From assembly GCA_965261345.1 (NCBI GenBank), contig OZ253449.1, positions 160,001 through 224,000 on the forward strand: 64,000 nt of DNA, given 5' to 3'. Below the pieces are notes generated by a model that saw only the letters and a list, made by a program, of their open reading frames with translations, was not told the DNA's origin and searched no databases. This DNA is from Chloroflexota bacterium. GTDB taxonomy: Bacteria; Chloroflexota; UBA11872; VXNJ01. Each line of letters begins with the position of its first letter. Position 1 is the first letter of the stretch. Position numbers and translations under genes: made by a program. Positions 1 to 35,536 of the stretch are shown one piece after another.

Positions 1-248
<248 letters not shown>

Positions 249-524: not shown

Positions 525-954
525 TCAGGTCGGCTGGCCGGGAGTAACCAATCGCCCCTCGTGCCTTATTGAATATCTTGGGGGGACCAGTACCTCGGCC
601 AGAGCTGGCCGCGGTGGATGCCCGGTGGAGAGATCGCGTTTGGCTCTAAGTCCGTGGCGGTCGCAGAACCGGCGCATCGACGAGCAGGAGACTGAGATGC
701 CGCGCTCGATCAGCAGTTCATGGATGCGGGTGAGCTGGAGCCTGTCGGTCTGGAGCCACTGCTTTATTTTCTCGGTGTGGGTCAAGGGGTGTCGGCGGCC
801 GGGGTGATGACCCCAGTCGGGGTGGTCAGGTTGAGCGCGGTCAGTTTGGCCAACTGGTCGTCGGTCGGATCGGGGCCGCCGGGCTGAAGGCCCAGTTCCT
901 GGGCGGCGTTTACATAGCGCCGCACGGTGTCGCGGACGCGGCTTGAGATCTTGG
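525..954 (-). pseudogene. Degenerate IS21-family istA, N-terminal region (second part; codons 1-29 are at 5998-6084)
   Basis: Reads ISSRVRDTVRRYVNAAQELGL...HTEKIKQWLQTDRLQLTRIHELL with a frameshift. Homologous to 22919-23336. Joins to 5998-6084 across the CTTGG duplication. Confidence 0.75.
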
Positions 955-982
955 TGATCAACGACAACTATTCTGTCCGGTT

Positions 983-2665
983 CCCGTTGCCTCACCAAAA
1001 AATGTAACCGAAATTTGGGACCGTTTATTTGACTCCGATTGGCGCGATTTCACTTACGATTTCGGCGTTCTCAACCGCACCATCAGCACCGTTTACGACT
1101 CCGTATACAAGCTCTTTGGCCATCACCGACCGCCATTGCTTGAGCCTTCGCTGCAACGTCCGCAGCTGCTTGGGCCCGACGGCGTCGGGGTGATCACGCA
1201 TGAGCACTTTCAGGATCTGCATGCCGCTGGCGTCGGGATGATCCTGCAGGTAGGTAAGCGCCGCGGGCCAGACGTGCTCTAGGGGGTCGGGGCAAGTCCG
1301 CCACCACCTGCGGCGCTTTCGTTTTGGACGGCGGGTCGGATTTGCATCGCCCTCGCGCCACAGATGAGAGAGCTTGGCTAAGGAACTGCGACAGATCATC
1401 CTTTTGCACCTTGCTTCTTTCCTCGGGCGATGCCAATGTGGCCAGGGCCGACTGGGCCTGGCGGATCTCGCTAAGGAGCAAGAGCGGATCCAGTTGCAAG
1501 CGCGTAGCGCGCAACCCCTCCTTGACCTTTTCGGCAACGGCGGGGTGATCGAGCAGGCGCTGGCAGGGAGTTAGCGGACGGTCGTAGCGCTTTTGGGTTC
1601 TGGCTCCATAGCGCTGCTTGGAGATCAGTTTGAAAGACGGTTGGAAGAAATTGGTGTAGAGACCAACTAAGGCAAAGAGTCGGGCCAGGGTCTGTCCGGC
1701 GATGAGGCCGGCAAAGCGCTCGTAACCGGCAAAGCGTCTGATTACGGCGCCGTTCTTCTGTTCGATGTAGGCCTGATCGTTGGAGCGGTAGGCGCGGGAG
1801 CGGGTGAACTCGATTTCACGCTCTTGGCAGTAATCGATAAGGGTCTGGGAGATAAAGGCGCTGTCGTTGTCAGTATCGATTCCAAGTATTGGCACCGGTA
1901 CCCGCCCGCCTATAACCTCAAGCGCCTCGGTCACAAGCGTCTGCTCCCTTGCCAGCAGCGGGACTGCCTCCACCCAGCCCGAGCACACATCGGTAACCGA
2001 CAGGGACTGGATGAAGCTCCCGGCCATGTTGCCACCACAGTGGGCCACCAGATCTATTTCCAGGTAGCCGGGGTCGGGGCCATGCCAATCGGCAAACGTC
2101 CGGATCGGGACCTTGGCGTGATGACGGTTGCGGCGGCGGGGGTGACGCCGTCGACTGCTGCCGGCGGTCTTGCGGACTGGTTTGAGGAGGCGATCGATCG
2201 ATGCCGGGCTGATCGCGAAGAGCTTGCTTTTAAGGTCCAGATCAAGCTGCAGGTGGCCATGCCCTTCCAGCGATTCGATCAGGCTGGGCAATATCGCTTG
2301 CAACCGTTTGCCGCAGATCCGATCGGCCGCTTCCCAGAGGATGATCAAAGACTCCCTGACGGCCTCGTCGTAGATGCGGTATGAGGACTTGGTGGGCGGT
2401 GCCGGAGCAGGGCTTGCAGCATTGCCCAGCAATCGGGTTGCGTATTTGCGGTTGTGGCCAGATAGAGCCACGAACTCGTTAAGGATTCCGCCCTTGTCGA
2501 TCTTGGACGCCCTCGCATAGCGGCCCCTTAAGGCCGCTAGCAGCTCCTTCCGCACCGCCCGGCTCAGCTTCTTTCCTCGCATCGGTTGCCTCCCTGTGGA
2601 TTTGGGTTACAAATCTAGTGAGGCAACGGCCCTGTTTGGGTTACAAAAACAGTGAGTCAATGCGC
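983..2665 (-). mobile_element. Unclassified DDE/rve (ISNCY-type) insertion sequence, copy 1
   Basis: Terminal motif GGTTACA-N8-TGAG(G/T)CAAYG occurs once inverted at 985-1009 and twice at about 2605-2662. Encloses the transposase ORF. Ends approximate to +/-3 bp. Confidence 0.8.
1025..2582 (-). pseudogene. DDE integrase-type transposase with +1 frameshift near 1380 separating a C-terminal HTH domain
   Basis: ORF 1194..2582 has EIDLVAHCG, DTDNDSAF and NDQAYIEQKN catalytic motifs. It continues in ORF 1025..1537 as LAKLSHLW...WWRTCPDPLEHVWP...LRTLQRRLKQWR. Confidence 0.82.
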
Positions 2666-3430
2666 ACGAGAACGGGGTGGTCGAGCAGGCCCACCGCCGC
2701 ATCAAGGACGCGGTTCGACAGGCATTGGTCCTGCGCGGCAGCTGCGACTTTACATCGCGCGAGGACTACTACGAATTTGTCAGGGAGGTTGTCGCGCGCA
2801 AGAACCGGCTGGCGGAGCCGAAGTCAGAGATTGAGCGCCCGCACCTCCGACCACTGCCGGCGGCGGCGATTCCCGATTACGTAAATTACCAGGCTCAGGT
2901 GCGCAAATGGAGCACGATCCGAGTGTTAAGCCGCACCTACACGGTACCACCGCGCCTGATCGGACAGAAGGTGGAGGTCCGTCTCTACGCCGACCACCTG
3001 GACGTGTACTACAAGAGCCGATTGGTCGAGCGCCTAGAGCGCGCCACCGGTCCCCAAAGGGCCCGCGTCAATTACCGCCACGTGATCGGATCGCTGGTGC
3101 TTGGAGCCGGGCGCCTTTACCCGCTACCGCTGATGCGAACAGCTTTTTCCCACCCCTACCTTCCGCCGCGCCTACGATGCGCTACAGGGGTGGCGCAGCC
3201 GGCACTCGGCCGACGTCAACTACCTGCGCATCCTGCAATTGGCGGCCACTACCATGGAGGCCGATGTCGATAAGGCCCTGTCCAAACTCTTGGACCAGGG
3301 GAAGCGCTTTGACTGTCAGGACGTGCGTGATCTGGTCGCGCCGCGCTCGCCGTCGATACCCGAGCTAGCATCCTTGGCCACACCCGACCTGGCTGTCTAC
3401 GATCGCCTGCTCTTGCGGGTGAACCGATGA
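2662..3430 (+). pseudogene. istA: IS21 transposase IstA, C-terminal half only; frameshift near 3100 and internal stop near 3131
   Basis: AHENGVVEQAH motif, YTVPPRLIG, VNYRHVIGSLV; final segment in ORF 3239..3430. Confidence 0.85.
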
Positions 3431-3816
3431 CCGCGCCGTCAGTTGTCGCCAAACAAATGCAGCTAATGTGCAAGGATCTGCGGCTGCCCACGATCGGGAC
3501 CGAGGCGGTAGAGCGCTTCGTTGACGCCGGACATGTTGATGCGCTGCCCACCCTGCTCGAAGTCTTCCGGCAGGAAATGGACGATCGTTACCAGCGGCGG
3601 GTGGATAGGCTGCGCAAGTCCTCGCGCCTCCCGCCGGGGAAGACCTGGGATAACTTCGAGCAGCAGAAACTGCCGCCGCCGCTCAGGGCCCAGCTGCAAG
3701 ACCTGCTGGAGGGCCAGTTCTTAGATCGTGCCGTCAACGTCCTGGCCTTTGGTCTGCCCGGCACCGGCAAGACCCATGCTCTGTGCGCGATCGGACACAA
3801 GCTGGTCGAATCTGGT

Positions 3817-5568
3817 GGACGTGTCCCACGGTGTGGTGTGACTAAGCCGTCCTCTACGTTTAGGGGTTCGGCAGCTGCAACTCTACAGAGTTGCAGCTGC
3901 CGGCAGGGCCGGCAGATGGTTGCTGGGGCTTGCTGGGGGAGTTTCGAGTCCTTGGCTGTGACGGCGACTGCCGGTAAGGCGTCCATCATTTTGCCAGTTG
4001 CGACCATGGCGCGGTCGCGGTCATATGGGCTTCCATGGGTCCGAAGGCCGGCCCCGGCCCGTAACGGCTCGCATTCGGGCTCACCGGGCCGGGTTTGTTG
4101 GGAAAGTCGGCCCAATTCGACGCTAGTGATCCTTATTTAGGCCCAGCTAGCGCCAAGCCGGGCGCACGACCTTCCATTTCCCTGGAGGGCGCTACGGCCC
4201 CCGGCGGCGGTTGCTACCCCGCCGGCAATGCCAGCGGGGACTGCCTCTCTCCCGGAGATGGGGGTTGGCCGATTAAGGCCATCGAGTGCCTGGACATATA
4301 GCGGCGCTCGGATGCGAGCCATTCGTCGTTCTGCTCAATTAGGACCGCTCCGATAAGGCGCAGGACCGAGTCATCGTCGGGGAAGAGCTGTACTACCCGG
4401 GTGCGGCGCTTTAGCTCGCCCATAACGCGCTCTAGGGGATTGGTGGACCAGATCTTGCGCCAGTGCGAAGGCGGGAAGGCGGTGTAGGCAGTCAGGGCGA
4501 TCTCGGAGTCCTCGAGGATCGTGGACAGTTCCGGATACTTGCGCTCTAAGCGATTGGCGAAATCTCCGAAGGCGTCCATGGCGCTCTGCTTGTCAGCCTG
4601 CCCAAACAGCGACGCCAGTCCGGCTGCCACCAGCCCGCGGTCGCCGCTTCTGACCCTTGGCAGAAGATTGCGCCCAAAGTGTGTCCTGCACGTCTGCCAG
4701 GCGGCCTCGGGAATAAGCTTTGTCACCGCGTTGCCGATGGCTTGGTTCCCATCGGAGATCACCAGCCGCACGCCGGATAGACTGCGCGTTACCAGGGAGG
4801 CGATCAAGTCCTCCCAGAAGCCCTGCGCTTCGCTGTGGCCGATTGCAAGCCCCAGCAGCTCGCGATGGCCGTTCTCGTTTATGGCCATTGCTATGCCCAC
4901 CGCCCGCGACCTTACCGCATGCGCGTTTCGGGCTTTTACGTAGGTGGCGTCGAGATAGAGGTACGGGAAGGTCGTATGCGCGAGATCGCGTTCGCGGAAG
5001 GCATTGACCAGCTCGTCGATGCCTTTGCAGATCCTTGACACCTCGGACCTGGAGATCCCGGCGTTTACTCCCATCGCCTCCACCAGCTTGTCGACCTTGC
5101 GGGTGGAGACGCCCTTGCTGTAGGCGGTCATGATGACGCCGTAGAGGGCCTGGTCGATGCGGCGCCGCCGCTCCAAGAACTCGGGGTAGTAGCTGCCTTG
5201 GCGCAGCTTGGGCAGGGCAATCTCGATGTCGCCCGCCCGGGTGGAGAGGGTGCGCTTGCGCGAGCCATCAAAGCCGATTGCGACGCTCGCCGTTGCGCTC
5301 GTGCGGTTTGGCGCCGATGTTTTCGGCCAGGCCGGCGTCAATAAGTTCCTGGTAGGCGTGCCGTACGGCGCTGCGGACGAATTCGCTGCTGTCAAACCCT
5401 TGCTTGGCGATAAGGGCAAGCAAGGTCTGATAATCAAGTTGGGCCATCGATGGTTCCTCGACGAAGTAAGTGAATTGACTCCGTAGAGGTTTACACGATG
5501 GCCCTTTGTCATCGCGTTGGCTTAGTTGATCAAGCGGGTGCTCTTACACCACTCCAGGGGACGTGACC
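3817..5568 (-). mobile_element. IS256-family element type A, copy 1 (1752 bp)
   Basis: IRs GGACGTGTCCCACGGTGTGGTGTGA / GGTCACGTCCCCTGGAGTGGTGTAA. 8-bp TSD AATCTGGT at 3809-3816 and 5569-5576. Confidence 0.95.
4214..5447 (-). CDS. IS256 (Mutator-type) transposase; needs a +1 shift at CTT-TGA (5268-5273)
   Basis: True start MAQLDYQ (5447) aligns with paralogue MAQIDYQ. Body has LYLDATYVK, LVISDG, CRTHF and STNPLER motifs. Confidence 0.85.
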
Positions 5569-5997
5569 AATCTGGTAGATCGGTGCTGTTTGCTCCGGCC
5601 TATCGGTTGGTGCAGGAACTATTGGCGGCCAAGCGCGACCTGGATCTGCCCCGACTCTTGCGCAAGCTCGACTACATCGACTTGATCATCATCGACGACC
5701 TGGGTTACCTGCCGCAGGGGACCGATGAGGCCGAGGTGCTCTTTACCCTGATCGCCGAGCGCTACGAGCGGCGCTCGATCGGAATCTCATCAAACCTGGT
5801 CTTCTCCGAATGGGGCAAGATCTTTCCCAATCCGATGGCCACCGCGGCGGCGGCGGACCGAATCGTCCATCACGCCGTAGTACTTGAATTTGACGTGCCC
5901 AGTTACCGGACCGGGCTTGAAAAAGAGGAGTTAAAGCCGGATTGAAACCGGCCAAAATAATTGACGCACACCCGGCCAGAGTAATAGGCGTTCTTCA

Positions 5998-6242
5998 CTT
6001 GGCGATGCGGCGCTGGCTCAGGCCCTTTTGCCAGAGCCGGATAAGTACGCGTGTATCCACTCGGAACTCCTCCTGGTAGGCCATGACGGCTCCCGGTTGG
6101 TTGGAACACGGGTAGCCGCAATGGTGATTGATAAGTGCGTTTGCCGGGTGGACTAGTGCCCCTGGCTAAGTGGCCTAATGCCCATGAACATGGGTGGATG
6201 AATTCCGTTGGCTAAGTGGGCGATAGGTGGTGGAGATCGACA
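5998..6242 (-). mobile_element. Left end and first 29 codons of istA of an older IS21-family element
   Basis: MAYQEEFRVDTRVLIRLWQKGLSQRRIAK from ATG 6084. Terminus TGTCGATCTCCACC at 6242. Homologous to 23250-23476. Confidence 0.7.
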
Positions 6243-6431: not shown

Positions 6432-6755
6432 CTAATCGATGGCGGCTCGATCGCGCGCCTGGCCCGTTTCGGCAGCAGGCCGTGTAGGCAGTTGATCAAT
6501 CAGGGTCCCCACATCGTTTGTAGCCTGCACCAAATCGAATTGGTTTTGCAGATTCAACCAGAATTGCGGGTCCATCCCGAACCAATGCCCTAGCCGCAAC
6601 GCGGTGTCGCAACTGATCGATCGGCGGTGGGCAATGATTTGGGAAATTCGATTTGCGGGCACATCCAATTGCCGAGCAATTTCAGTCGCCGATATACCCA
6701 ACTCGGCAATTTCGTCTTTGAGGACTGTTCCAGGATGCACCGCTCGCTTAAACAA
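6432..6755 (-). CDS. higA: HigA-family antitoxin (Xre HTH)
   Basis: VHPGTVLKDE...RISQIIAHRRSISCDTALRLGHWFG...FWLNLQNQFDL is the canonical HigA pattern. Confidence 0.92.
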   Translation of the reverse strand: MFKRAVHPGTVLKDEIAELGISATEIARQLDVPANRISQIIAHRRSISCDTALRLGHWFGMDPQFWLNLQNQFDLVQATNDVGTLIDQLPTRPAAETGQARDRAAID

Positions 6756-6776
6756 CGTAGTCCGCCTTAGCCAAAA

Positions 6777-7061
6777 TTAGTGGCAGTTAACGATCTCGAC
6801 CCGAGCGGGACCTGCTTGGCCAACAGGCCACTTAAAGCAGATTCGCCACCGGTGATTAATCCTGTTTGAGTATTGACCACGACGCCGACCACCAAGTGAC
6901 TGGAGGCGATTGCTGGGCAGCGCCCGCAATGATTCGATAGCAGCGGCGGCATTGAGAATCGATAGACGTTTCTCAGCTTGCTGCTCAATCGACTCAAACT
7001 CCCTAACAATTTCACCACCTGCAAACCTCTCGGTCCGCTTGTCGGCGTAGTCGACGATCAT
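6777..7061 (-). CDS. higB: HigB (RelE/ParE killer-type) toxin
   Basis: MIVDYADKRTERF...LPSNRLQSLGGRRRGQYSNRINHRWRICFKW...VEIVNCH, directly upstream of higA. Confidence 0.88.
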   Translation of the reverse strand: MIVDYADKRTERFAGGEIVREFESIEQQAEKRLSILNAAAAIESLRALPSNRLQSLGGRRRGQYSNRINHRWRICFKWPVGQAGPARVEIVNCH

Positions 7062-8398
7062 CTCTGATCTTTCTCGGTCAATAGACGCAGTACGTAAAGC
7101 GTACATTGAGATCGCTATTGATGCCTGTTGAAACGCAGGCAAGGTGAAATCTGAGATTTTGACACCTGCCCGAGGCGCCAAGGAAGTATTCAGACTCGGA
7201 GGTTAGTTCCCAGCTTGCTGATGCCGGACAATGCAGCAGCTTCTATAGGCTGCGATCAGATACAGGAATAATGATTCTGCCTCGTATCTTTGGCCTCAAC
7301 ATGATATTCAGAGGTCTAGCACTGTGCGCAACCCTCGATATATCTGTGCCAAGACCGGCCCGGGGGCACGGCCGGCAAGTTCAACTAAGTGATCGCGGTC
7401 AATGGTAATGATTTGGGACACGTTAGCCACCGAGTCTTTCGGCAGCCCAAGGACGTGTCCCGTAGTTTGGTGTAAATAGGCCATTGCCTCTACGTGGGGT
7501 TCGGCATGATCATCTTTAAAGATGATCATGCCGGCAGGGCCGGCATATGGACGGGCGACGTTTCCTTCTGGCTAGCTTCCGCGGCGCTTGGTTACGCCCA
7601 ATATTCTCATCGACGAAGGATCTTTCCATCATCAATGGATCCAACCTCGGGTCGGAGAACTAAAGGGCCGCAAATCGCCGCAGAGTACCTTCAAGTTCCA
7701 ATGCGAACAGGCGACGAAGTACGAACTACGTTCAATTGAGGGTGTGCTCGCGCCAACGGGCCGACCTTTAGAAACCGGCCCCGGGTGAGCTGGGGCGGCC
7801 TCTACAGGCCGACCACCGTCGGCAAGGCCAGATGGCGGTTGATCTCCTCGGATGTTGAGACCTTGCCGATCATCGCCATGGTCCGAGCGGCCATGTAGCG
7901 GCGTTCGGACACTGCCCACTCGTCGTTTTGTTCACAAAGAACCGCTCCCACGAGGCGCAGCACCGAGGCATCGTCAGGAAATAGCTGCACCACCCTGGTC
8001 CTGCGCTTGATTTCAACCATGAGCCGCTCTAAGGGGTTAGTCGACCAGATCTTGCGCCAGTGCTCTGGCGGGAAGTCGGTATAGGCGGTCAGCTCGATCT
8101 CGGCGTTATCGAGTATTGCCGCCAATTCGGGATAGCGCCGCTCCAATCGATCGGCGAAGTGATGGTAGGCGCCTATGGCGCTCTCCCGGTCGGGCTGGGC
8201 GAAGACCGATGCCAGGCCGGCCGCCACCACTCGTTGATCAGCCCTTTTCACCTTTCGCAACAGATTGCGTTCGAAGTGGACCCTGCAGGTCTGCCAGGCG
8301 GCATCGGGCAATAGCCTGGCAACCGCGTTGCCGATCGCCTTGTGTCCATCGGAGATGACCAGTCTGACGCCGCTGAGGCCGCGCTCGGTAAGTGACCG

Positions 8399-9761
8399 TG
8401 GCAGGTCCCCGGTTTTGGTACCAGGTGGTTTGAGACATTGTCTTGTGGGAGGGTGCCGCCAGCTCTCCTGCAGGAGAGCTGGCGGCGAAGCTGATATTGC
8501 GGCCGCCCGTAGCACCCACGAAGACGGACGCCGGGCCGTCGATGAGGCCGGCCAGCAGCAGCCGGATTGCAACCGGAAGTTGATCCATCACGCCGCCGCC
8601 TCGATCGCTTCCAGGGGCGCCAGGTAGCCGAGCGCCGAGTGCGGGCGCACGGTGTTGTAGTCGATCCGGAAGCGCTCCAGCATCACCCTGGCTTCTTCGA
8701 GGGTGAAGAATATCTCGCGGTCCAGGAGCTCGTCGCGGAGCTTGGATATGAACGATTCCGCATAGGCGTTCTCCCAGGGCGCTCCGGGCTTTATGTAGAC
8801 GGTCTTGACGCTGTTGCCAGATAGCCATTGCCTTATCGCTTTGGCGGTAAATTCGGGGCCGTTGTCAGAGCGGATGTGCTCGGGGACCCCGTGGATGAGC
8901 ATGAGGTCGGCGATTGTCTCGATCACGTCCCGGGCAGGGAAGGATCGGGCCGCCCGGGCCGCTAAGGCCACGCGGGTGAACTCATCGACCACGGTAAGGA
9001 TCCGCAGTGGTCTGCCGTCCTCGGTGCGCTCGTAGGTAAAGTCGTAGGCCCAGACGTGATTCGGGCGCTCGGCCATAAGCCGCGTAGAGCGTCCGTTCTC
9101 CAGCCAGAGGCGCGACTTCTTGACCTTTCGGATCGGGACCTTAAGGCCCTGCGCGCGCCAGATGCGCAATACCCGTTTGCGGTTCAGTTTCCAGCCCGAG
9201 TGTTTAAGCAGGGCGGTGATGCGCTTGTAGCCATAGCGGGGGTGCTTGAGGGAAAGCATCCTGATCTCGGCGGTGAGGTTGTCCTCTTCCGGATCGGGTT
9301 TTGGGATGTAGCGCTGGGTGCGGCGCGATTGGCCCAGCACCCGGCAGGCTCTTCGTTCAGACACCGGGAACTTGGCCCGGACGTGGTCGACGCACTTGCG
9401 CCGCCGCTCCGGGCTTAGAAGTTTCCCGAGGCCGTCTCTTTCAGGATCTGGTTGTCGAGCGTTAGATCGGCCACCGCGTGTTTTAAGCGCTTGTTCTCCT
9501 CGCGCAGGCGCTTGTTCTCCTTGGCCTCGGCGAGCGTCATCCCGCCGTAGCGGGAGCGCCAGCGGTAATAGGTCTGGACGTTGATCGCCGCCTTGCGGCA
9601 GCTCTGCTCGACGGTGTCGCCCTGGGCGACACCAAGCTCTATGGCCCGGAGCTTGTTGATGATCTGTTCGGGCGAGTACTTTCGCTTCGCCATTGCAGTC
9701 CCCTTTCGTTGGAACCAGATTATTCACATTCCCTCTGGTACCAATGAGGGGGAGCCGGCCA
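8399..9761 (-). mobile_element. IS3-family element (IS407-like), apparently intact
   Basis: IRs TGGCAGGTCCCCGGTTTTGGTACCA / TGGCCGGCTCCCCCTCATTGGTACCA. 4-bp TSD ACCG at 8395-8398 and 9762-9765. Confidence 0.93.
8588..9693 (-). CDS. IS3 transposase OrfAB (orfA 9415..9693; -1 frameshift at GGGAAAC near 9422-9428; orfB ends 8588)
   Basis: OrfA MAKRKYSPEQII...LTLDNQILKE. OrfB has WAYDF, IRSDNGPEF, WENAYAESF and RPHSALGY. Confidence 0.93.
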
Positions 9762-10738
9762 ACCGCAGGAAGTCCTCCCAGAAACCCTGCTCTTCGCTGT
9801 GACCGACAGATAGGCCCAACAGTTCGCGATGGCCGTCCCTGTTAACGGCCATGGCCACCGCCACCGCCCGCGATCGCACTGCGTTGCCGTTGCGGGCCTT
9901 TAGGTAGGTGGCGTCGATGAACAGGTAGGGGAACTCGGTATGGAAAAGATCGCGGGAGCGGAAGTCGGAGACCATCGCGTCGATTCCCTTGCAGATGCGG
10001 GAGACCTCGGATTTGGATATCCCGGCATTGACACCCAGGGATTCGACAAGCTTGTCGACCTTCCTTGTGGAAATCCCTTTGATGTAAGCCGTCATGATCA
10101 CCGCGTAGAGGGCCCTGTCGACGCGTCTTCGCTTCTCTAGAAATTCGGGGTAGTAGCTTCCCTTGCGCAGCTTGGGCAGGGCGATCTCGATATCGCCGCC
10201 ACGCGTGGAGATGGTTCGTTTGCGGGATCCGTTGCGCTGGGTCCTGCGTGATCCATTGCGTTCATGCGGTCCGGCGCCGATATGTTCGACCAGACCGGCG
10301 TCAATTAGCTGCTGATAGGAGTGCTCGATGACGTTGCGGATGAATTCGCCGGTGTCTAGCCCCTCATCGCGAATTTGAGCGAGCAGGGACTGATAATCGA
10401 TCTGGGCCATCGTTGTGGTACCTCGAAGAGAGAAGTGAAGTTCATCTCGTAGAGGATTGCACGATGGCCCTTATTCATCGTGATTGCTTATTTGAAATAA
10501 GCTGGCAGAGTTACACCAATTGGTGGGACGTGATCCAGCCCAACTTCTTCGGCCCGCATGAAGACTTTGCCTGGAGCTTCGTTTAAGCGAAGGTTTGAAG
10601 TGACGGTGATAGCTACTACGGTGCTCATCCGACTGAGGTTGAATGAATCTGCCTGAACGACCAACAAGGGACGCCTGAACAAAGGTTCAGATCCGCGAGA
10701 TTCGGGCAGATTTGCCCACCAGACCTCGCCGCGTTCAA

Positions 10739-21528: not shown

Positions 21529-22891
21529 TCGTCCTTTGGGGAGCGGCCGATCGGATCTGCGGCAAACGATTGCAAGCGATATTGCCCAGCCTGATCGAAT
21601 CACTGGAAGGGCATGGCCACCTGCAGCTTGATCTGGATGTACGCAGCAAGCTGCTCTCAATCAGCCCGGCGTCGATCGATCGGATGCTCAAACCGGTGCG
21701 CAAGACCGCCGGCAGCAGTCGACGGCGTAATCCCCGCCGCCGCAATCGTCATCACGCCAAAGTCCCGATCAGGACCTTTGCCGATTGGCATGGCCCCCAG
21801 CCCGACTACCTGGAAATAGACCGGGCGGCCCATTGTGGCGGCAACATGGCCGGGGCCTTCATCCAATCCCTGTCGGTTACCGATGTTTCCTCGGGCTGGG
21901 TGGAGGCGGTTCCACTGCTGGCCCGCGAGCAGACGCTGGTGACCGAGGCGTTGGAGGTTATAGCCGGGCGGGCACCGATTCCAGTGCTCGGCATTGACTC
22001 GGATAACGACAGCGCCTTTATCTCCCAGACCCTGATTGACTACTGCCAGCAGCGTGATATCGAGTTCACTCGCTCACGTGCCTATCGCTCCAACGATCAG
22101 GCCTTCATCGAGCAGAAGAACGGCGCCGTAATCTGAGCGCTTTGCCGGCTATGAACGCTTTGCCGGATTCATCGCCGGACAGACCCTGGCCCGACTCTTT
22201 GCCCTGGTCGGTCTCTACACCAATTTCTTCCAACCGTCTTTCAAACTGATCTCCAAGCAGCGCTATGGAGCCAGGACCCAAAAACGCTACGGCCGTCCCT
22301 TAACTCCCTGCCAGCGACTGCTTGATCATCCCGCTGTTGCCGAAAAGGTCAAGGCGGGGTTGCGCGACAAGCGCTCCAAACTGGATCCGCTCTTGCTCCT
22401 TAGCCAGATCCGTGCGGCTCAATCGGCTCTGGCCGCGCCGGCAGCTCCTGAAGATCGCAACAAGGTGCAACGGGAAGACCTGTCGCAATTCCTGGCCAGG
22501 CTCTCTCAATCTATGGCGCGCGGGAGAGGCCAATCCCGCGCGGCGGCCAAAACGAAAGCGCCGCATCTGGTGGCGGACGCGTAGAGATCCCCTAGAGCAC
22601 ATATGGCCCAAGGTGCTTAGCTACCTGCAGGATCATCCCGACGCCAGCGGCACCGGGATCCTGGAAGTATTGATGCGCAACCATCCCGACGCTGTCGGTC
22701 CCAAGCAGCTGCGGACGTTGCAGCGCAGGCTCAAGCAATGGCGGTCGGTGATGGCCCGAGAACTTGTATACGGGGTGGTTAATGGCGCTGCCGATACGGT
22801 CGACAAAGTCGAAATCGTACATGTAATCGCACCGATTGGGGCCAAATAAACGGTCCCAAATTTCGGTTACATTTTTTGATGAGGCAACGGG
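21529..22891 (+). mobile_element. ISNCY-type element copy 2, 3' portion (pseudogene, frameshifts near 22135 and 22509)
   Basis: Strongly similar to the reverse complement of 983-2345, starting at VLWGAADRICGK. Terminal GGTTACATTTTTTGATGAGGCAACG at 22865-22889. Confidence 0.88.
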
Positions 22892-22918
22892 GTCGGCCAG
22901 AGTAATAGACGTTCTTCA
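22892..22918 (+). mobile_element. Isolated IS21 right terminus, same type as 5970-5997
   Basis: CGGCCAGAGTAATAGACGTTCTTCA vs CGGCCAGAGTAATAGGCGTTCTTCA (1 mismatch in 25). Confidence 0.85.
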
Positions 22919-25567: not shown

Positions 25568-25890
25568 AAGGACTCCCTGACGGCCTCGTCGTAGATGCGG
25601 TTTGAGGACTTGGTGGGCGGTGCCGGAGCAGGGCTTGCAGCATTGCCCAGTATTCGGGTTGCATAGTTACGGTTGTAGCCAGATAGAGCTACGAACTCGT
25701 TCAGAATCGCGCCCTTCTCGCTTCTTGGACGCCCGCGCGTAGCGGCCCCTTAAGGCCGCTAGCAGCTCCTTCCGCACCGCCCGGCTCAAACTCTTACCTG
25801 CCATCGGTTGCCTCCGTAGAGATTTGGGTTACAAATCTTGTATGTTGGCAACGGTCCTGTTTGGGTTACAAAAACAGTGAGTCGATGCGC
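25568..25890 (-). mobile_element. ISNCY-type element copy 2, 5' portion (upstream end plus about 78 codons, frameshifted)
   Basis: Similar to 2350-2665: MAGKSLSRAVRKELLAAL..., with two GGTTACA end motifs. Stops at ...AVRES. Confidence 0.85.
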
Positions 25891-33784: not shown

Positions 33785-35536
33785 GATCACGTCCCCTGGA
33801 GTGGTGTAAGAGCACCCGCTTGATCAACTAAGCCAACGCGATGACAAAGGGCCATCGTGTAAACCTCTACGGAGTCAATTCACTTACTTCGTCGAGGAAC
33901 CATCGATGGCCCAACTTGATTATCAGACCTTGCTTGCCCTTATCGCCAAGCAAGGGTTTGACAGCAGCGAATTCGTCCGCAGCGCCGTACGGCACGCCTA
34001 CCAGGAACTTATTGACGCCGGCCTGGCCGAAAACATCGGCGCCAAACCGCACGAGCGCAACGGCGAGCGTCGCAATCGGCTTTGATGGCTCGCGCAAGCG
34101 CACCCTCTCCACCCGGGCGGGCGACATCGAGATTGCCCTGCCCAAGCTGCGCCAAGGCAGCTACTACCCCGAGTTCTTGGAGCGGCGGCGCCGCATCGAC
34201 CAGGCCCTCTACGGCGTCATCATGACCGCCTACAGCAAGGGCGTCTCCACCCGCAAGGTCGACAAGCTGGTGGAGGCGATGGGAGTAAACGCCGGGATCT
34301 CCAGGTCCGAGGTGTCAAGGATCTGCAAAGGCATCGACGAGCTGGTCAATGCCTTCCGCGAACGCGATCTCGCGCATACGACCTTCCCGTACCTCTATCT
34401 CGACGCCACCTACGTAAAAGCCCGAAACGCGCATGCGGTAAGGTCGCGGGCGGTGGGCATAGCAATGGCCATAAACGAGAACGGCCATCGCGAGCTGCTG
34501 GGGCTTGCAATCGGCCACAGCGAAGCGCAGGGCTTCTGGGAGGACTTGATCGCCTCCCTGGTAACGCGCGGTCTATCCGGCGTGCGGCTGGTGATCTCCG
34601 ATGGGAACCAAGCCATCGGCAACGCGGTGACAAAGCTTATTCCCGAGGCCGCCTGGCAGACGTGCAGGACACACTTTGGGCGCAATCTTCTACCAAGGGT
34701 CAGAAGCGGCGACCGCGGGCTGGTGGCAGCCGGACTGGCGTCGCTGTTTGGGCAGGCTGACAAGCAGAGCGCCATGGACGCCTTCGGAGATTTCGCCGAT
34801 CGCTTAGAGCGCAAGTATCCGGAACTGTCCACGATCCTCGAGGACTCCGAGATCGCCCTGACTGCCTACACCGCCTTCCCGCCTTCGCACTGGCGCAAGA
34901 TCTGGTCCACCAATCCCCTAGAGCGCGTTATGGGCGAGCTAAAGCGCCGCACCCGGGTAGTACAGCTCTTCCCCGACGATGACTCGGTCCTGCGCCTTAT
35001 CGGAGCGGTCCTAATTGAGCAGAACGACGAATGGCTCGCATCCGAGCGCCGCTATATGTCCAGGCACTCGATGGCCTTAATCGGCCAACCCCCATCTCCG
35101 GGAGAGAGGCAGTCCCCGCTGGCATTGCCGGCGGGGTAGCAACCGCCGCCGGGGGCCGTAGCGCCCTCCAGGGAAATGGAAGGTCGTGCGCCCGGCTTGG
35201 CGCTAGCTGGGCCTAAATAAGGATCACTAGCGTCGAATTGGGCCGACTTTCCCAACAAACCCGGCCCGGTGAGCCCGAATGCGAGCCGTTACGGGCCGGG
35301 GCCGGCCTTCGGACCCATGGAAGCCCATATGACCGCGACCGCGCCATGGTCGCAACTGGCAAAATGATGGACGCCTTACCGGCAGTCGCCGTCACAGCCA
35401 AGGACTCGAAACTCCCCCAGCAAGCCCCAGCAACCATCTGCCGGCCCTGCCGGCAGCTGCAACTCTGTAGAGTTGCAGCTGCCGAACCCCTAAACGTAGA
35501 GGACGGCTTAGTTACACCACACCGTGGGACACGTCC
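33785..35536 (+). mobile_element. IS256-family element type A, copy 2 (1752 bp)
   Basis: Near-identical to the reverse complement of 3817-5568. Confidence 0.95.
33906..35139 (+). CDS. IS256 transposase; needs a +1 shift at CTT-TGA (34080-34085)
   Basis: Frame 0 (33906..34085) encodes MAQLDYQ...ERRNRL*; the +1 frame continues DGSRKRTLSTRAGDIE... Confidence 0.85.

Follow-up and report, generated by a model that had tools for sequence, protein, structure and literature searches.

The window analysed here is a stretch of 64,000 nucleotides from a Chloroflexota bacterium (contig OZ253449.1, positions 160,001 to 224,000), in which one insertion sequence sits in the end of another. The host is an IS21 element that spans 955-5997 and is flanked by a 5-nt target duplication, with the left copy at 950..954 and an identical right copy at 5998..6002, just outside the right tip. 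Its right end is intact (5946..5997, minus strand) and carries repeat 2 and then repeat 1, with the tip at 5997. All that remains of its left end is the outermost terminal repeat, L1, at 955..982 (plus strand; about 26 nt plus 2 nt). This repeat starts with TG, has its partner in the right end at 5997 and shows homology with the L1 repeats of intact IS21 copies in the genome. The istA gene survives as a remnant (2666..3430, plus strand; Pfam Mu-transpos_C_2; 80% identical to intact istA copies at the DNA level) that begins at the region of the catalytic glutamate and lacks the first ~250 codons. The istB gene (3427..5945, plus strand), identified from open reading frames and from pieces that match intact copies, is split at 3816/5567 by a 1,750-bp IS256-like element (3817-5566, repeat I1). 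In an intact IS21 copy of the same subgroup (L024), IstA scores 192 bits on NF033546 (cut-off 160), and the IstB of this subgroup scores 225.7 bits on NF038214 (cut-off 200; Pfam IstB_IS21 E 7e-48). Each free IS21 end has two repeats and a TG/CA tip, and the target duplications measure 5, 5, 6 and 7 nt; the range for the IS21 family is 4-8 nt. With its IstA, downstream IstB, ends and duplication, the host element at 955-5997 is a member of the IS21 family. The window as a whole is full of nested IS elements, among them the IS256-like element in istB and one IS21 inside another.

The inserted element is a DDE (rve) insertion sequence with a mobile core of 1,683 bp at 983-2665 (minus strand), with 983 as its left end (LE) and 2665 as its right end (RE). 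These bounds are the points at which homology among nine near-full genomic copies ends, and the same unit is defined by a core-only insertion elsewhere in the genome with empty sites in sister species. The N-terminal part of the transposase, with the rve catalytic domain (Pfam E 1.7e-9), is read from a frame of 462 aa at 1194..2582 (minus strand), which leaves the correct frame at its end. The C-terminal domain lies in a second frame of the open reading frame list, 1025..1537 (minus strand), and alignment to an intact copy shows that one additional base near 1379 separates the two. The window copy is a frameshifted pseudogene, a dead copy; intact 518-aa versions of the transposase are present in the genome copies at 256k and 2060k. 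The right end of the core (2583..2665, minus strand) holds two tandem copies of a subterminal repeat that is present once at the left end (983-~1020), an architecture also found in loci of other phyla. No second gene was found in the 1.68-kb core. The segment 955-982 was at one point read as part of the element, prompted by homology among copies that seemed to start at 955; this reading was dropped, since these 28 nt vary among otherwise identical copies and pair with IS21 right ends. A second copy of the core, 86% identical, consists of an LE part (21529..22891, plus strand, tip at 22891) and an RE piece (25568..25890, minus strand) that is inverted relative to it, with the break at element position ~1390.

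The first-pass annotation of the window had proposed that both copies abut IS21 ends at almost the same depth, one a left end and the other a right end, through independent events, and each part of this claim holds. The LE tip of copy 1 at 983 is preceded by the 28 nt of 955-982, with their TG start; the tip of copy 2, on the other strand, ends at 22891 and is followed by 27 nt (22892..22918, minus strand) that end in CA. The latter are the outermost repeat of an IS21 right end and sit within the istA gene of another IS21 type. The host right-end tip (5972-5997) matches this flank at 24 of 26 positions and the copy 1 flank at 19 of 26, the lower figure being expected if the copy 1 flank is a left end; the same comparison bears out the independence of the two insertions. 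That the flanks belong to IS21 and not to the inserted element follows from the pairing of 955 with 5997, from the 5-nt duplication and from cores that are ~99% identical with different flanks. The window copy is not a simple insertion, as IS21 positions ~29 to ~900 are absent on its right.

By transposase score the element falls outside the IS21, IS481 and IS3 families. Pfam and NCBIfam searches with the transposase found the rve domain only and nothing above any IS-family cut-off: the protein P0001 scores 16.5 bits on the IS21 model NF033546 (cut-off 160), 39.3 bits for IS481 (cut-off 224) and 26.1 bits for IS3 (cut-off 160), and the element has no IstB gene. Relatives of the transposase carry the precomputed label PF27155, and RefSeq plasmid homologues with 46% identity are annotated as 'ISNCY family transposase' (H8, H10, H11, H18) or as 'DDE-type integrase/transposase/recombinase'. 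Through these annotated homologues the ISNCY label applies, and ISNCY is a holding class of ISfinder, not a true family. More than 5,000 related proteins pass E 0.001, in phyla from Chloroflexota to Pseudomonadota. With independent insertions that recur in position and orientation at a recognisable site, and with empty sites present, the element belongs among the target-site-specific insertion sequences. No earlier description of it was found in the literature searched; IS catalogues or paper supplements may hold one.

At its C-terminus the 518-aa transposase has ~90 residues that resemble the linker and second helix-turn-helix (HTH) region of the resident IstA. BLASTP aligns residues 402-486 of P0001 with IstA residues 31-115 in 90 columns, of which 43% are identical (E 2e-13). 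When IstA residues 1-120 are used as a tblastn query, they match the transposase C-terminus in nearly all of 80 loci from many phyla. This establishes the homology to the N-terminal region of IstA that had been claimed from the window. All 22 family members that were aligned have conserved the domain, so any capture must be ancient. The sign that it may have been captured at all is the nearest out-group transposase (394 aa, 37% identical), which stops where the domain begins and lacks it. By its position the domain probably corresponds to the structurally defined HTH-2 of IstA. PDB sequence searches with the domain, by phmmer and with a 23-sequence profile, gave no match, and Foldseek with its AlphaFold model (mean pLDDT 81.9) gave none at E<1; IstA is absent from that list, which is headed by a Pax paired domain at E 1.5. 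Full-length IstA itself matches PDB 8b4h/8q4d only over its catalytic and barrel parts. As described for the IstA of IS5376, HTH-2 recognises, in each repeat, the conserved box nearest the tip, and IstA normally requires both repeats of an end (PMC10122671). We infer that the domain does the targeting. A role for it as a recruiter of IstB was rejected, as IstB is described as contacting the β-barrel of IstA and not its HTH domains (PMC11208146).

In this 2.39-Mb genome (G000), 10 of 11 readable LE junctions (9 of 10 LE junctions plus one diverged fragment) adjoin an IS21-type outer repeat at a depth of 26-28 nt. All seven LE junctions of two sister species do so as well (4/4 in G002 and 3/3 in G003), and 17 of the 18 junctions in the three species show this constant depth of 26-28 nt. 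Nine different repeat sequences, counted by eye, are involved, and the cores are 98.6-99.3% identical; loci L044 and L043 carry L1 and the spacer of the genome's intact IS21 type. Simple insertions are absent from G000, and the RE adjoins deleted IS21 interior in three copies, an inverted outer repeat in three and other DNA in three. In three composites, duplications of 5-7 nt enclose both the outer repeat and an IS21 right end that lies far from it. The off-target copy at genome position 2060k has flanks that are contiguous in G003 and G005 and overlap by 3 nt. As the site is empty in both of these sister species and the duplication is 3 nt long, the core alone is the mobile unit.

The preference for IS21 ends extends far beyond this genus. 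Among the 80 loci, 57 of 70 scorable LE sides and 40 of 71 RE sides adjoin an IS21-type outer repeat, compared with 1.1% of random windows. The consensus score used for this count was derived from IS21 ends free of contact with the element and misplaces some tips (for example on the RE sides of L075, L096 and L100), so the counts are lower bounds; some of the 12 of 70 LE sides without a scored repeat are such misplaced tips. An earlier classifier built on a fixed spacing pattern overlooked obvious cases and was dropped. In about 24 of the 57 junction strings the depth was read by eye, and it is 26-28 nt in all of them. Non-random flanks of homologous elements had been set beforehand as a test of the targeting claim, and this is what the three species and the other phyla display. 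Dehalococcoidia loci contain simple insertions, in which the core separates repeat 1 from repeat 2 at one end of an intact IS21 copy. In L066, L072 and L090 this is a right end and in L067 a left end, and all four IS21 copies retain full istA and istB. L066 and L067, from one genome, serve as mutual empty sites and are consistent with a 2-4-nt duplication. The repeat that adjoins the element in genome G064 is 100% identical to resident IS21 tips ~100 nt from istB. Two rhizobial plasmid copies are off target, one in a recombinase gene and the other in an IS66 element.

These observations are probably best explained by a widespread IS family with a 1.68-kb unit that prefers the junction of IS21 repeat 1 and repeat 2 and carries an IstA-like domain. 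The core encodes a single 518-aa DDE transposase and inserts with a ~3-nt duplication. It prefers the point at which the outermost IstA-binding repeat meets the second, at a depth of 26-28 nt in either the left or the right IS21 end, and its own LE usually faces the IS21 tip. The domain, which is homologous to the linker and probable second HTH of IstA from the exact IS21 subgroup hit, may dock the transpososome on the repeats of IS21, or on an IstA that occupies them, and so set the insertion point. Insertion parts two repeats which IstA has to bind as neighbours and so disables that IS21 end. In most copies the IS21 interior beside the element's RE has later been lost, often as far as the outer repeat of the other end. 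Outer repeats stand on both sides in 28 of 80 loci, the double-repeat form, and few of these have a duplication outside them (5 of 28 by script, plus L100 by eye); the simple model does not yield this majority form. A bolder reading, which is tentative and on balance doubtful, is that of a two-level IS21 parasite: its IstA-derived module would dock the transpososome on the IstA-binding repeats, and the element would insert between these, kill the end and replace the interior while the outer repeats are kept, and the resulting unit could be moved by the IstA/IstB of intact copies. The repeats so kept would be those that hold the cleavage sites, and the element would spread both by its own enzyme and by that of its victim.

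It is unlikely, and still worth weighing, that the targeting is real and the domain does not read IS21 DNA. It would then bind the element's own tips, or touch an IstA that already occupies the IS21 end, and the ~70-degree bend that IstA imposes where repeat 1 meets repeat 2 would set the insertion point. In the description of IstA, the R1-R2 junction is sharply bent and the HTH-2 domains of its subunits touch each other (PMC10122671). The element tips, read outward, also resemble by eye the tip-proximal box of the IS21 repeat, and the domain could instead bind these. Elements persist in G065, a metagenome-assembled genome in which no full istB was found, an observation that says nothing on the time of insertion.

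A second alternative, which we consider rather improbable, places the weight on IS21 mobility: once the interior has been lost, the core with its two outer repeats would spread mainly as a passenger of IstA/IstB from intact IS21 copies. The outside duplications of 5-7 nt are the size that IS21 makes, and two composites in G000 share a junction, have nested deletions and are bracketed by distinct duplications of 5 nt and 7 nt. The cores of these two composites are not closest relatives, however (97.9% identity, as against 99.3% to another copy), and the existing duplications can be relics of the original IS21 insertion. Passenger transport also sits poorly with the 23 of 28 double-repeat loci in which the script found no outside duplication, with the normal need of IstA for both repeats of an end, as described in PMC10122671, and with the conservation of the transposase across phyla.

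Far less probable is a third alternative, in which the TG-tipped repeats of 26 nt belong to the element as its terminal inverted repeats and resemble IS21 through common descent; the transposon would be repeat-core-repeat, and contact with IS21 would arise through end confusion or recombination. This would suit the double-repeat loci, the 5-6-nt duplications outside the few of them that have any, the 10 of 28 loci in which both repeats are of the same type, at times of the same sequence (by eye), and the absence from the core tips of the TG/CA dinucleotides that are usual with rve transposases. Several observations contradict it as the sole explanation. Cores that are 99% identical carry different repeats, both in G000 and in one Aminicenantes genome, where three cores with 99.3% identity have three different LE-side repeats. 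The orientation of the core relative to left-type and right-type repeats varies (by eye, 10 loci against 6), one genome has both filled and empty IS21 ends, and the repeat in G064 is that of the resident IS21 tips. The core-only insertion has a 3-nt duplication, whereas the outside duplications of 5-7 nt have the size of IS21's own in the same genomes. Chance nesting, suggested by a window crowded with nested IS elements, is refuted by the counts, namely the constant depth in 17 of 18 junctions and 57 of 70 family-wide against 1.1% by chance, and the other nested elements of the window do not occupy the 26-28-nt position.

The preferred reading, a family that inserts between IS21 repeats 1 and 2, has consequences beyond this locus. 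To our knowledge, target-specific insertion sequences are rare. The known site readers are guide RNAs in IS110/IS1111, and a subgroup of IS1202 finds its site by means not yet understood. Here, a single-protein DDE element has the end of another IS family as its target and, as candidate reader, a domain shared with the transposase of that family. This offers a simple and testable model of how DDE transposases may gain site specificity through domain fusion. The element is also an example from nature of a transposon that polices or exploits a different one. Given its wide spread, the element may shape IS21 copy number, and it may explain many of the 'solo' IS21 terminal repeats and IS21 internal deletions met in genome annotation. 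IS catalogues probably mis-delimit those ISNCY-labelled transposases that have IS21-like 26-nt flanking repeats.

A comparison with known systems places the element among several partial parallels. The N-terminal DNA-binding region of the IS21 IstA is built of HTH-1, a linker and HTH-2, and the element appears to share the linker and HTH-2 region, judged by position on the solved IS5376 IstA. Unlike in IstA, the domain is C-terminal and follows an unrelated catalytic core, and HTH-1, the β-barrel and IstB are absent. Tn7 TnsD and the Tn5053-type 'res hunters' likewise insert at a fixed distance from a site read by a dedicated DNA-binding module; these systems consist of several proteins, among them an ATPase and a separate target selector, in contrast to a single 518-aa protein. 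IS4321 and IS5075, of the IS1111 group, insert in the terminal inverted repeats of Tn21-family transposons and inactivate that end, and share with the element a specificity for terminal repeats that belong to a different transposable element. When IS30 targets inverted repeats, deletions and rearrangements follow. As described in PMC9333248, IS30 has an end-binding DDE transposase and prefers IS ends as targets; it hits its own ends, whereas the element hits those of another family, with whose transposase it shares a DNA-binding module. Elements of the IS4321/IS5075 type are described as having DEDD transposases and a guide RNA that selects the target (PMC11187229), compared with a DDE/rve enzyme and a protein domain as candidate reader here. 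A further parallel is an IS1202-family subgroup, ISAjo2 and ISAba32, reported to insert beside dif and pdif Xer sites (PMC10132070; bioRxiv 10.1101/2022.12.17.520857). As these sources describe them, they too are DDE elements formerly in ISNCY that insert in one orientation and at a fixed distance of a few nucleotides from a site bound by the proteins of another mobility system. Compared by description, their duplications are 5-6, 15-18 or 24-29 nt, the sizes expected for IS1202, and that of the element is ~3 nt, which in this trait sets it apart from that family; their abstracts report no domain borrowed from the protein that binds the target. Their target is a Xer recombination site, whereas that of the element described here is the end of another insertion sequence.

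The 1.68-kb DDE (rve) insertion sequence is present twice in the window. Copy 1 spans 983-2665 (1,683 bp), with its transposase on the minus strand; the catalytic part lies at 1194-2582 and the C-terminal domain at 1025-1537 (both minus), and one extra base near 1379 disrupts the frame and splits the two. Two other copies in the genome carry intact genes for the 518-aa transposase (P0001). The left end (LE) of the element is the side downstream of the transposase gene. Its tip in copy 1 is 983, preceded by 28 nt (955-982) that start with TG, while copy 2, on the opposite strand, has its tip at 22891, and the next 27 nt (22892-22918) terminate in CA. The first-pass annotation had proposed that both copies abut IS21 ends, and the sequence bears this layout out, as both LE tips adjoin TG/CA-tipped IS21 flanks. 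Copy 2 is broken and partly inverted into pieces at 21529-22891 and 25568-25890, split at element position ~1390, in opposite orientation and 2.7 kb apart; this arrangement is an inversion with one break within the element. Positions 955-982 were initially read as part of the element, since homology among genomic copies appeared to start at 955. This reading was ruled out: the cores are 98.6-99.3% identical, yet their flanks differ at many positions, the partner of 955 is an IS21 right end with its tip at 5997, and the copy 2 flank matches 24/26 positions of that tip.

The IS21 that hosts copy 1 can be delimited. Identical 5-nt sequences lie at 950-954 and 5998-6002, and since these stand outside the paired tips 955 and 5997, 955-5997 is one IS21 insertion, located within istA of a different IS21 type. 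The assignment of the copy 1 flank to a left end and the copy 2 flank to a right end, also made in the first-pass annotation, holds as well: the copy 1 flank matches the right tip at 19/26 positions, against 24/26 for copy 2, as would be expected of an imperfect left/right pair. On the right side of the core, the host IS21 sequence picks up only mid-istA, with ~870 bp of IS21 absent; an IS256-like element (3817-5566) interrupts its istB. The right end of this IS21 is intact. The IS256-like element, with a 432-aa transposase, has two inverted 1,750-bp copies that are 100% identical (3817-5566 and 33787-35536) and more diverged relatives at about 7800-8570 and 9720-10410. The host IS21 was inserted into the part of the other type's istA that codes for the first N-terminal HTH. 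At L059, a Dehalococcoidia locus, an IS21 outer repeat just downstream of the element adjoins the corresponding position in an unrelated istA, and this IS21 subgroup may have a target preference for that position. Fragments at window 3-248 and genome ~938,500 are C-terminal parts of what we take to be IS110-type transposases, and the element copy at genome 938-940k has its right flank in one of them. Two small adjacent minus-strand ORFs at 6432-7181 (107 aa and 134 aa) resemble genes for a HigA-type antitoxin containing an XRE HTH and for a toxin of the HigB/RelE type.

The association extends throughout the genome of the window (G000; 2.39 Mb, one contig), which holds nine near-full copies and several fragments. 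The outermost ~26-nt IS21-type terminal repeat (outer repeat, or repeat 1) adjoins LE, 26-28 nt deep, in 9/10 junctions, or 10/11 with one diverged fragment. The nine right-end (RE) junctions meet IS21 interior in three cases (istA in two, istB in one), the inner edge of an inverted outer repeat in three and other DNA in three, and every copy has a deletion on this side. Duplications of 5, 7 and 6 nt enclose three composites of IS21 plus core, and one of 5 nt encloses an intact IS21. A related IS21 type is represented by three intact copies with neither end occupied; the outer repeat plus spacer of this type is occupied by the element in the sister species G002 (L044) and G003 (L043). LE contacts an outer repeat in 4/4 junctions found in G002 and 3/3 in G003, and nine different outer-repeat sequences were counted by eye across the three species.

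Scoring of 8,000 candidates gave more than 5,254 related proteins at E 0.001. The top 120, with lengths of about 510 aa, span many phyla, and plasmid homologues are named 'ISNCY family transposase' or 'DDE-type integrase' in RefSeq. Junctions at 80 fetched loci were scored with a consensus built solely from IS21 ends not touching the element, at a threshold that 1.1% of random windows reach. An outer repeat adjoins 57/70 scorable LE sides and 40/71 RE sides, both lower bounds, as some tips were misplaced by the script; the LE insertion depth is 26-28 nt in all of the roughly 24 of these 57 loci counted by eye. Another genome (G064) has a single core, and the repeat next to it is 100% identical to the tips of resident IS21 copies, which lie ~100 nt from istB. 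At four loci (L027 in G002, L095, L096, L115), RE adjoins two forward IS21 repeats at a depth of about 49-50 nt, so the inner edge of the second repeat also serves as a junction. Two rhizobial plasmid copies annotated ISNCY (L126, L127) are located in a recombinase gene and an IS66 element; their left end has two inner repeats, and only on that side is there an outer repeat.

The mobile unit is the core alone. Only one G000 copy, at genome 2060k, lacks an IS21 repeat; in G003 and in G005, another sister species, its two flanks run together uninterrupted with a 3-nt overlap, which indicates a 3-nt duplication. The core inserts preferentially where repeat 1 meets repeat 2, the next repeat inward. 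It does so at either end of IS21, with LE pointing at the tip, and generates a ~3-nt duplication. Four Dehalococcoidia loci have the core between these repeats in an IS21 with full istA and istB, three at the right end (L066, L072, L090) and one at the left (L067). L066 and L067 belong to one genome, their IS21 copies are 86.8% identical, and each gives the uninterrupted version of the end broken in the other; their comparison reveals a clean insertion at IS21 positions ~26-28, with a 2-4-nt duplication and LE toward the tip. L063, L079 and L108 look, by eye, like further simple insertions from their junction orientation.

These occupied and empty ends within one genome, together with the core-only insertion and its empty sites in sister species, count against the alternative that the 26-nt repeats are the element's own inverted repeats. 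That alternative has real support: the repeats flank the core on both sides in 28 loci, outside duplications of 5-6 nt occur in 5 of these (and in L100, by eye), and the core tips lack TG/CA. However, those duplications are of the size made by IS21 itself, and the repeats are not inherited together with the cores, either in G000 or in an Aminicenantes genome, where each of three cores 99.3% identical has an LE-side repeat of its own and two of these copies carry the same repeat pair with the orientation swapped. Core orientation relative to left-type and right-type repeats also varies, with 10 loci one way and 6 the other by eye; the remaining double-repeat loci have two left-type repeats (10), two right-type (1) or an unclear pair (1). 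Ownership of the repeats by the element fails on these points, and they very probably belong to its IS21 target.

The commonest state is two outer repeats around the core with the IS21 interior gone. Here RE must meet the opposite outer repeat at its inner edge, a junction that one insertion in the usual orientation cannot yield. This junction could arise if two cores occupied both IS21 ends in direct orientation and a homologous deletion followed, if RE attacked the opposite end of a synapsed IS21, or through mobilisation by IstAB at a later stage. The script found no outside duplication in 23/28 double-repeat loci, which suggests exchange between separate IS21 copies. L076 has, upstream of the transposase gene, a ~10-nt remnant resembling the left-end tip between outer repeat and RE, which may be a trace of how these junctions form.

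The proposal of an IstA-like C-terminal domain is supported by alignment of P0001 402-486 with resident IstA 31-115 (43% identity, E 2e-13). A tblastn search with IstA residues 1-120 matched the transposase C-terminus in nearly all 80 loci, and the domain is kept in 22/22 aligned family members. The closest out-group in 60 related genomes, 37% identical over residues 5-391, is a 394-aa transposase that terminates where the domain would begin. Precomputed Pfam assignments place PF27155 beside rve in all listed family members, and this entry may already describe the domain. Alignment of this subgroup's IstA with the solved IS5376 IstA begins only at residue 129, so the shared region would correspond by position to the linker and HTH-2. 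A Foldseek search with an AlphaFold model of the domain (mean pLDDT 81.9) gave no hit at E below 1; a Pax paired domain came highest, at E 1.5, and IstA was not among the hits. Excerpts of the published account (PMC10122671) describe HTH-2 contacting the tip-proximal conserved box of each repeat and HTH-1 the inner box, with DNA sharply bent near the R1-R2 junction.

These features suggest a model where the IstA-like domain would anchor the transposase at the IS21 repeats, either on their tip-proximal box or through IstA already sitting there, with strand transfer then occurring at the bent repeat-1/repeat-2 junction. The element's own tips resemble this box, so the same domain may also grip the element's ends. 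Insertion puts 1.7 kb between the two repeats, which IstA requires next to each other, and so disables that IS21 end.

The open-access literature searched holds no description of an insertion sequence aimed at IS21 ends. The element belongs with the target-specific IS elements. It is unusual in aiming at another IS family, and in having as its putative reader a domain that the victim's transposase also carries. The closest described systems are IS4321/IS5075, found in Tn21-type repeats, the IS1202 subgroup at dif sites and IS30, which targets its own ends.
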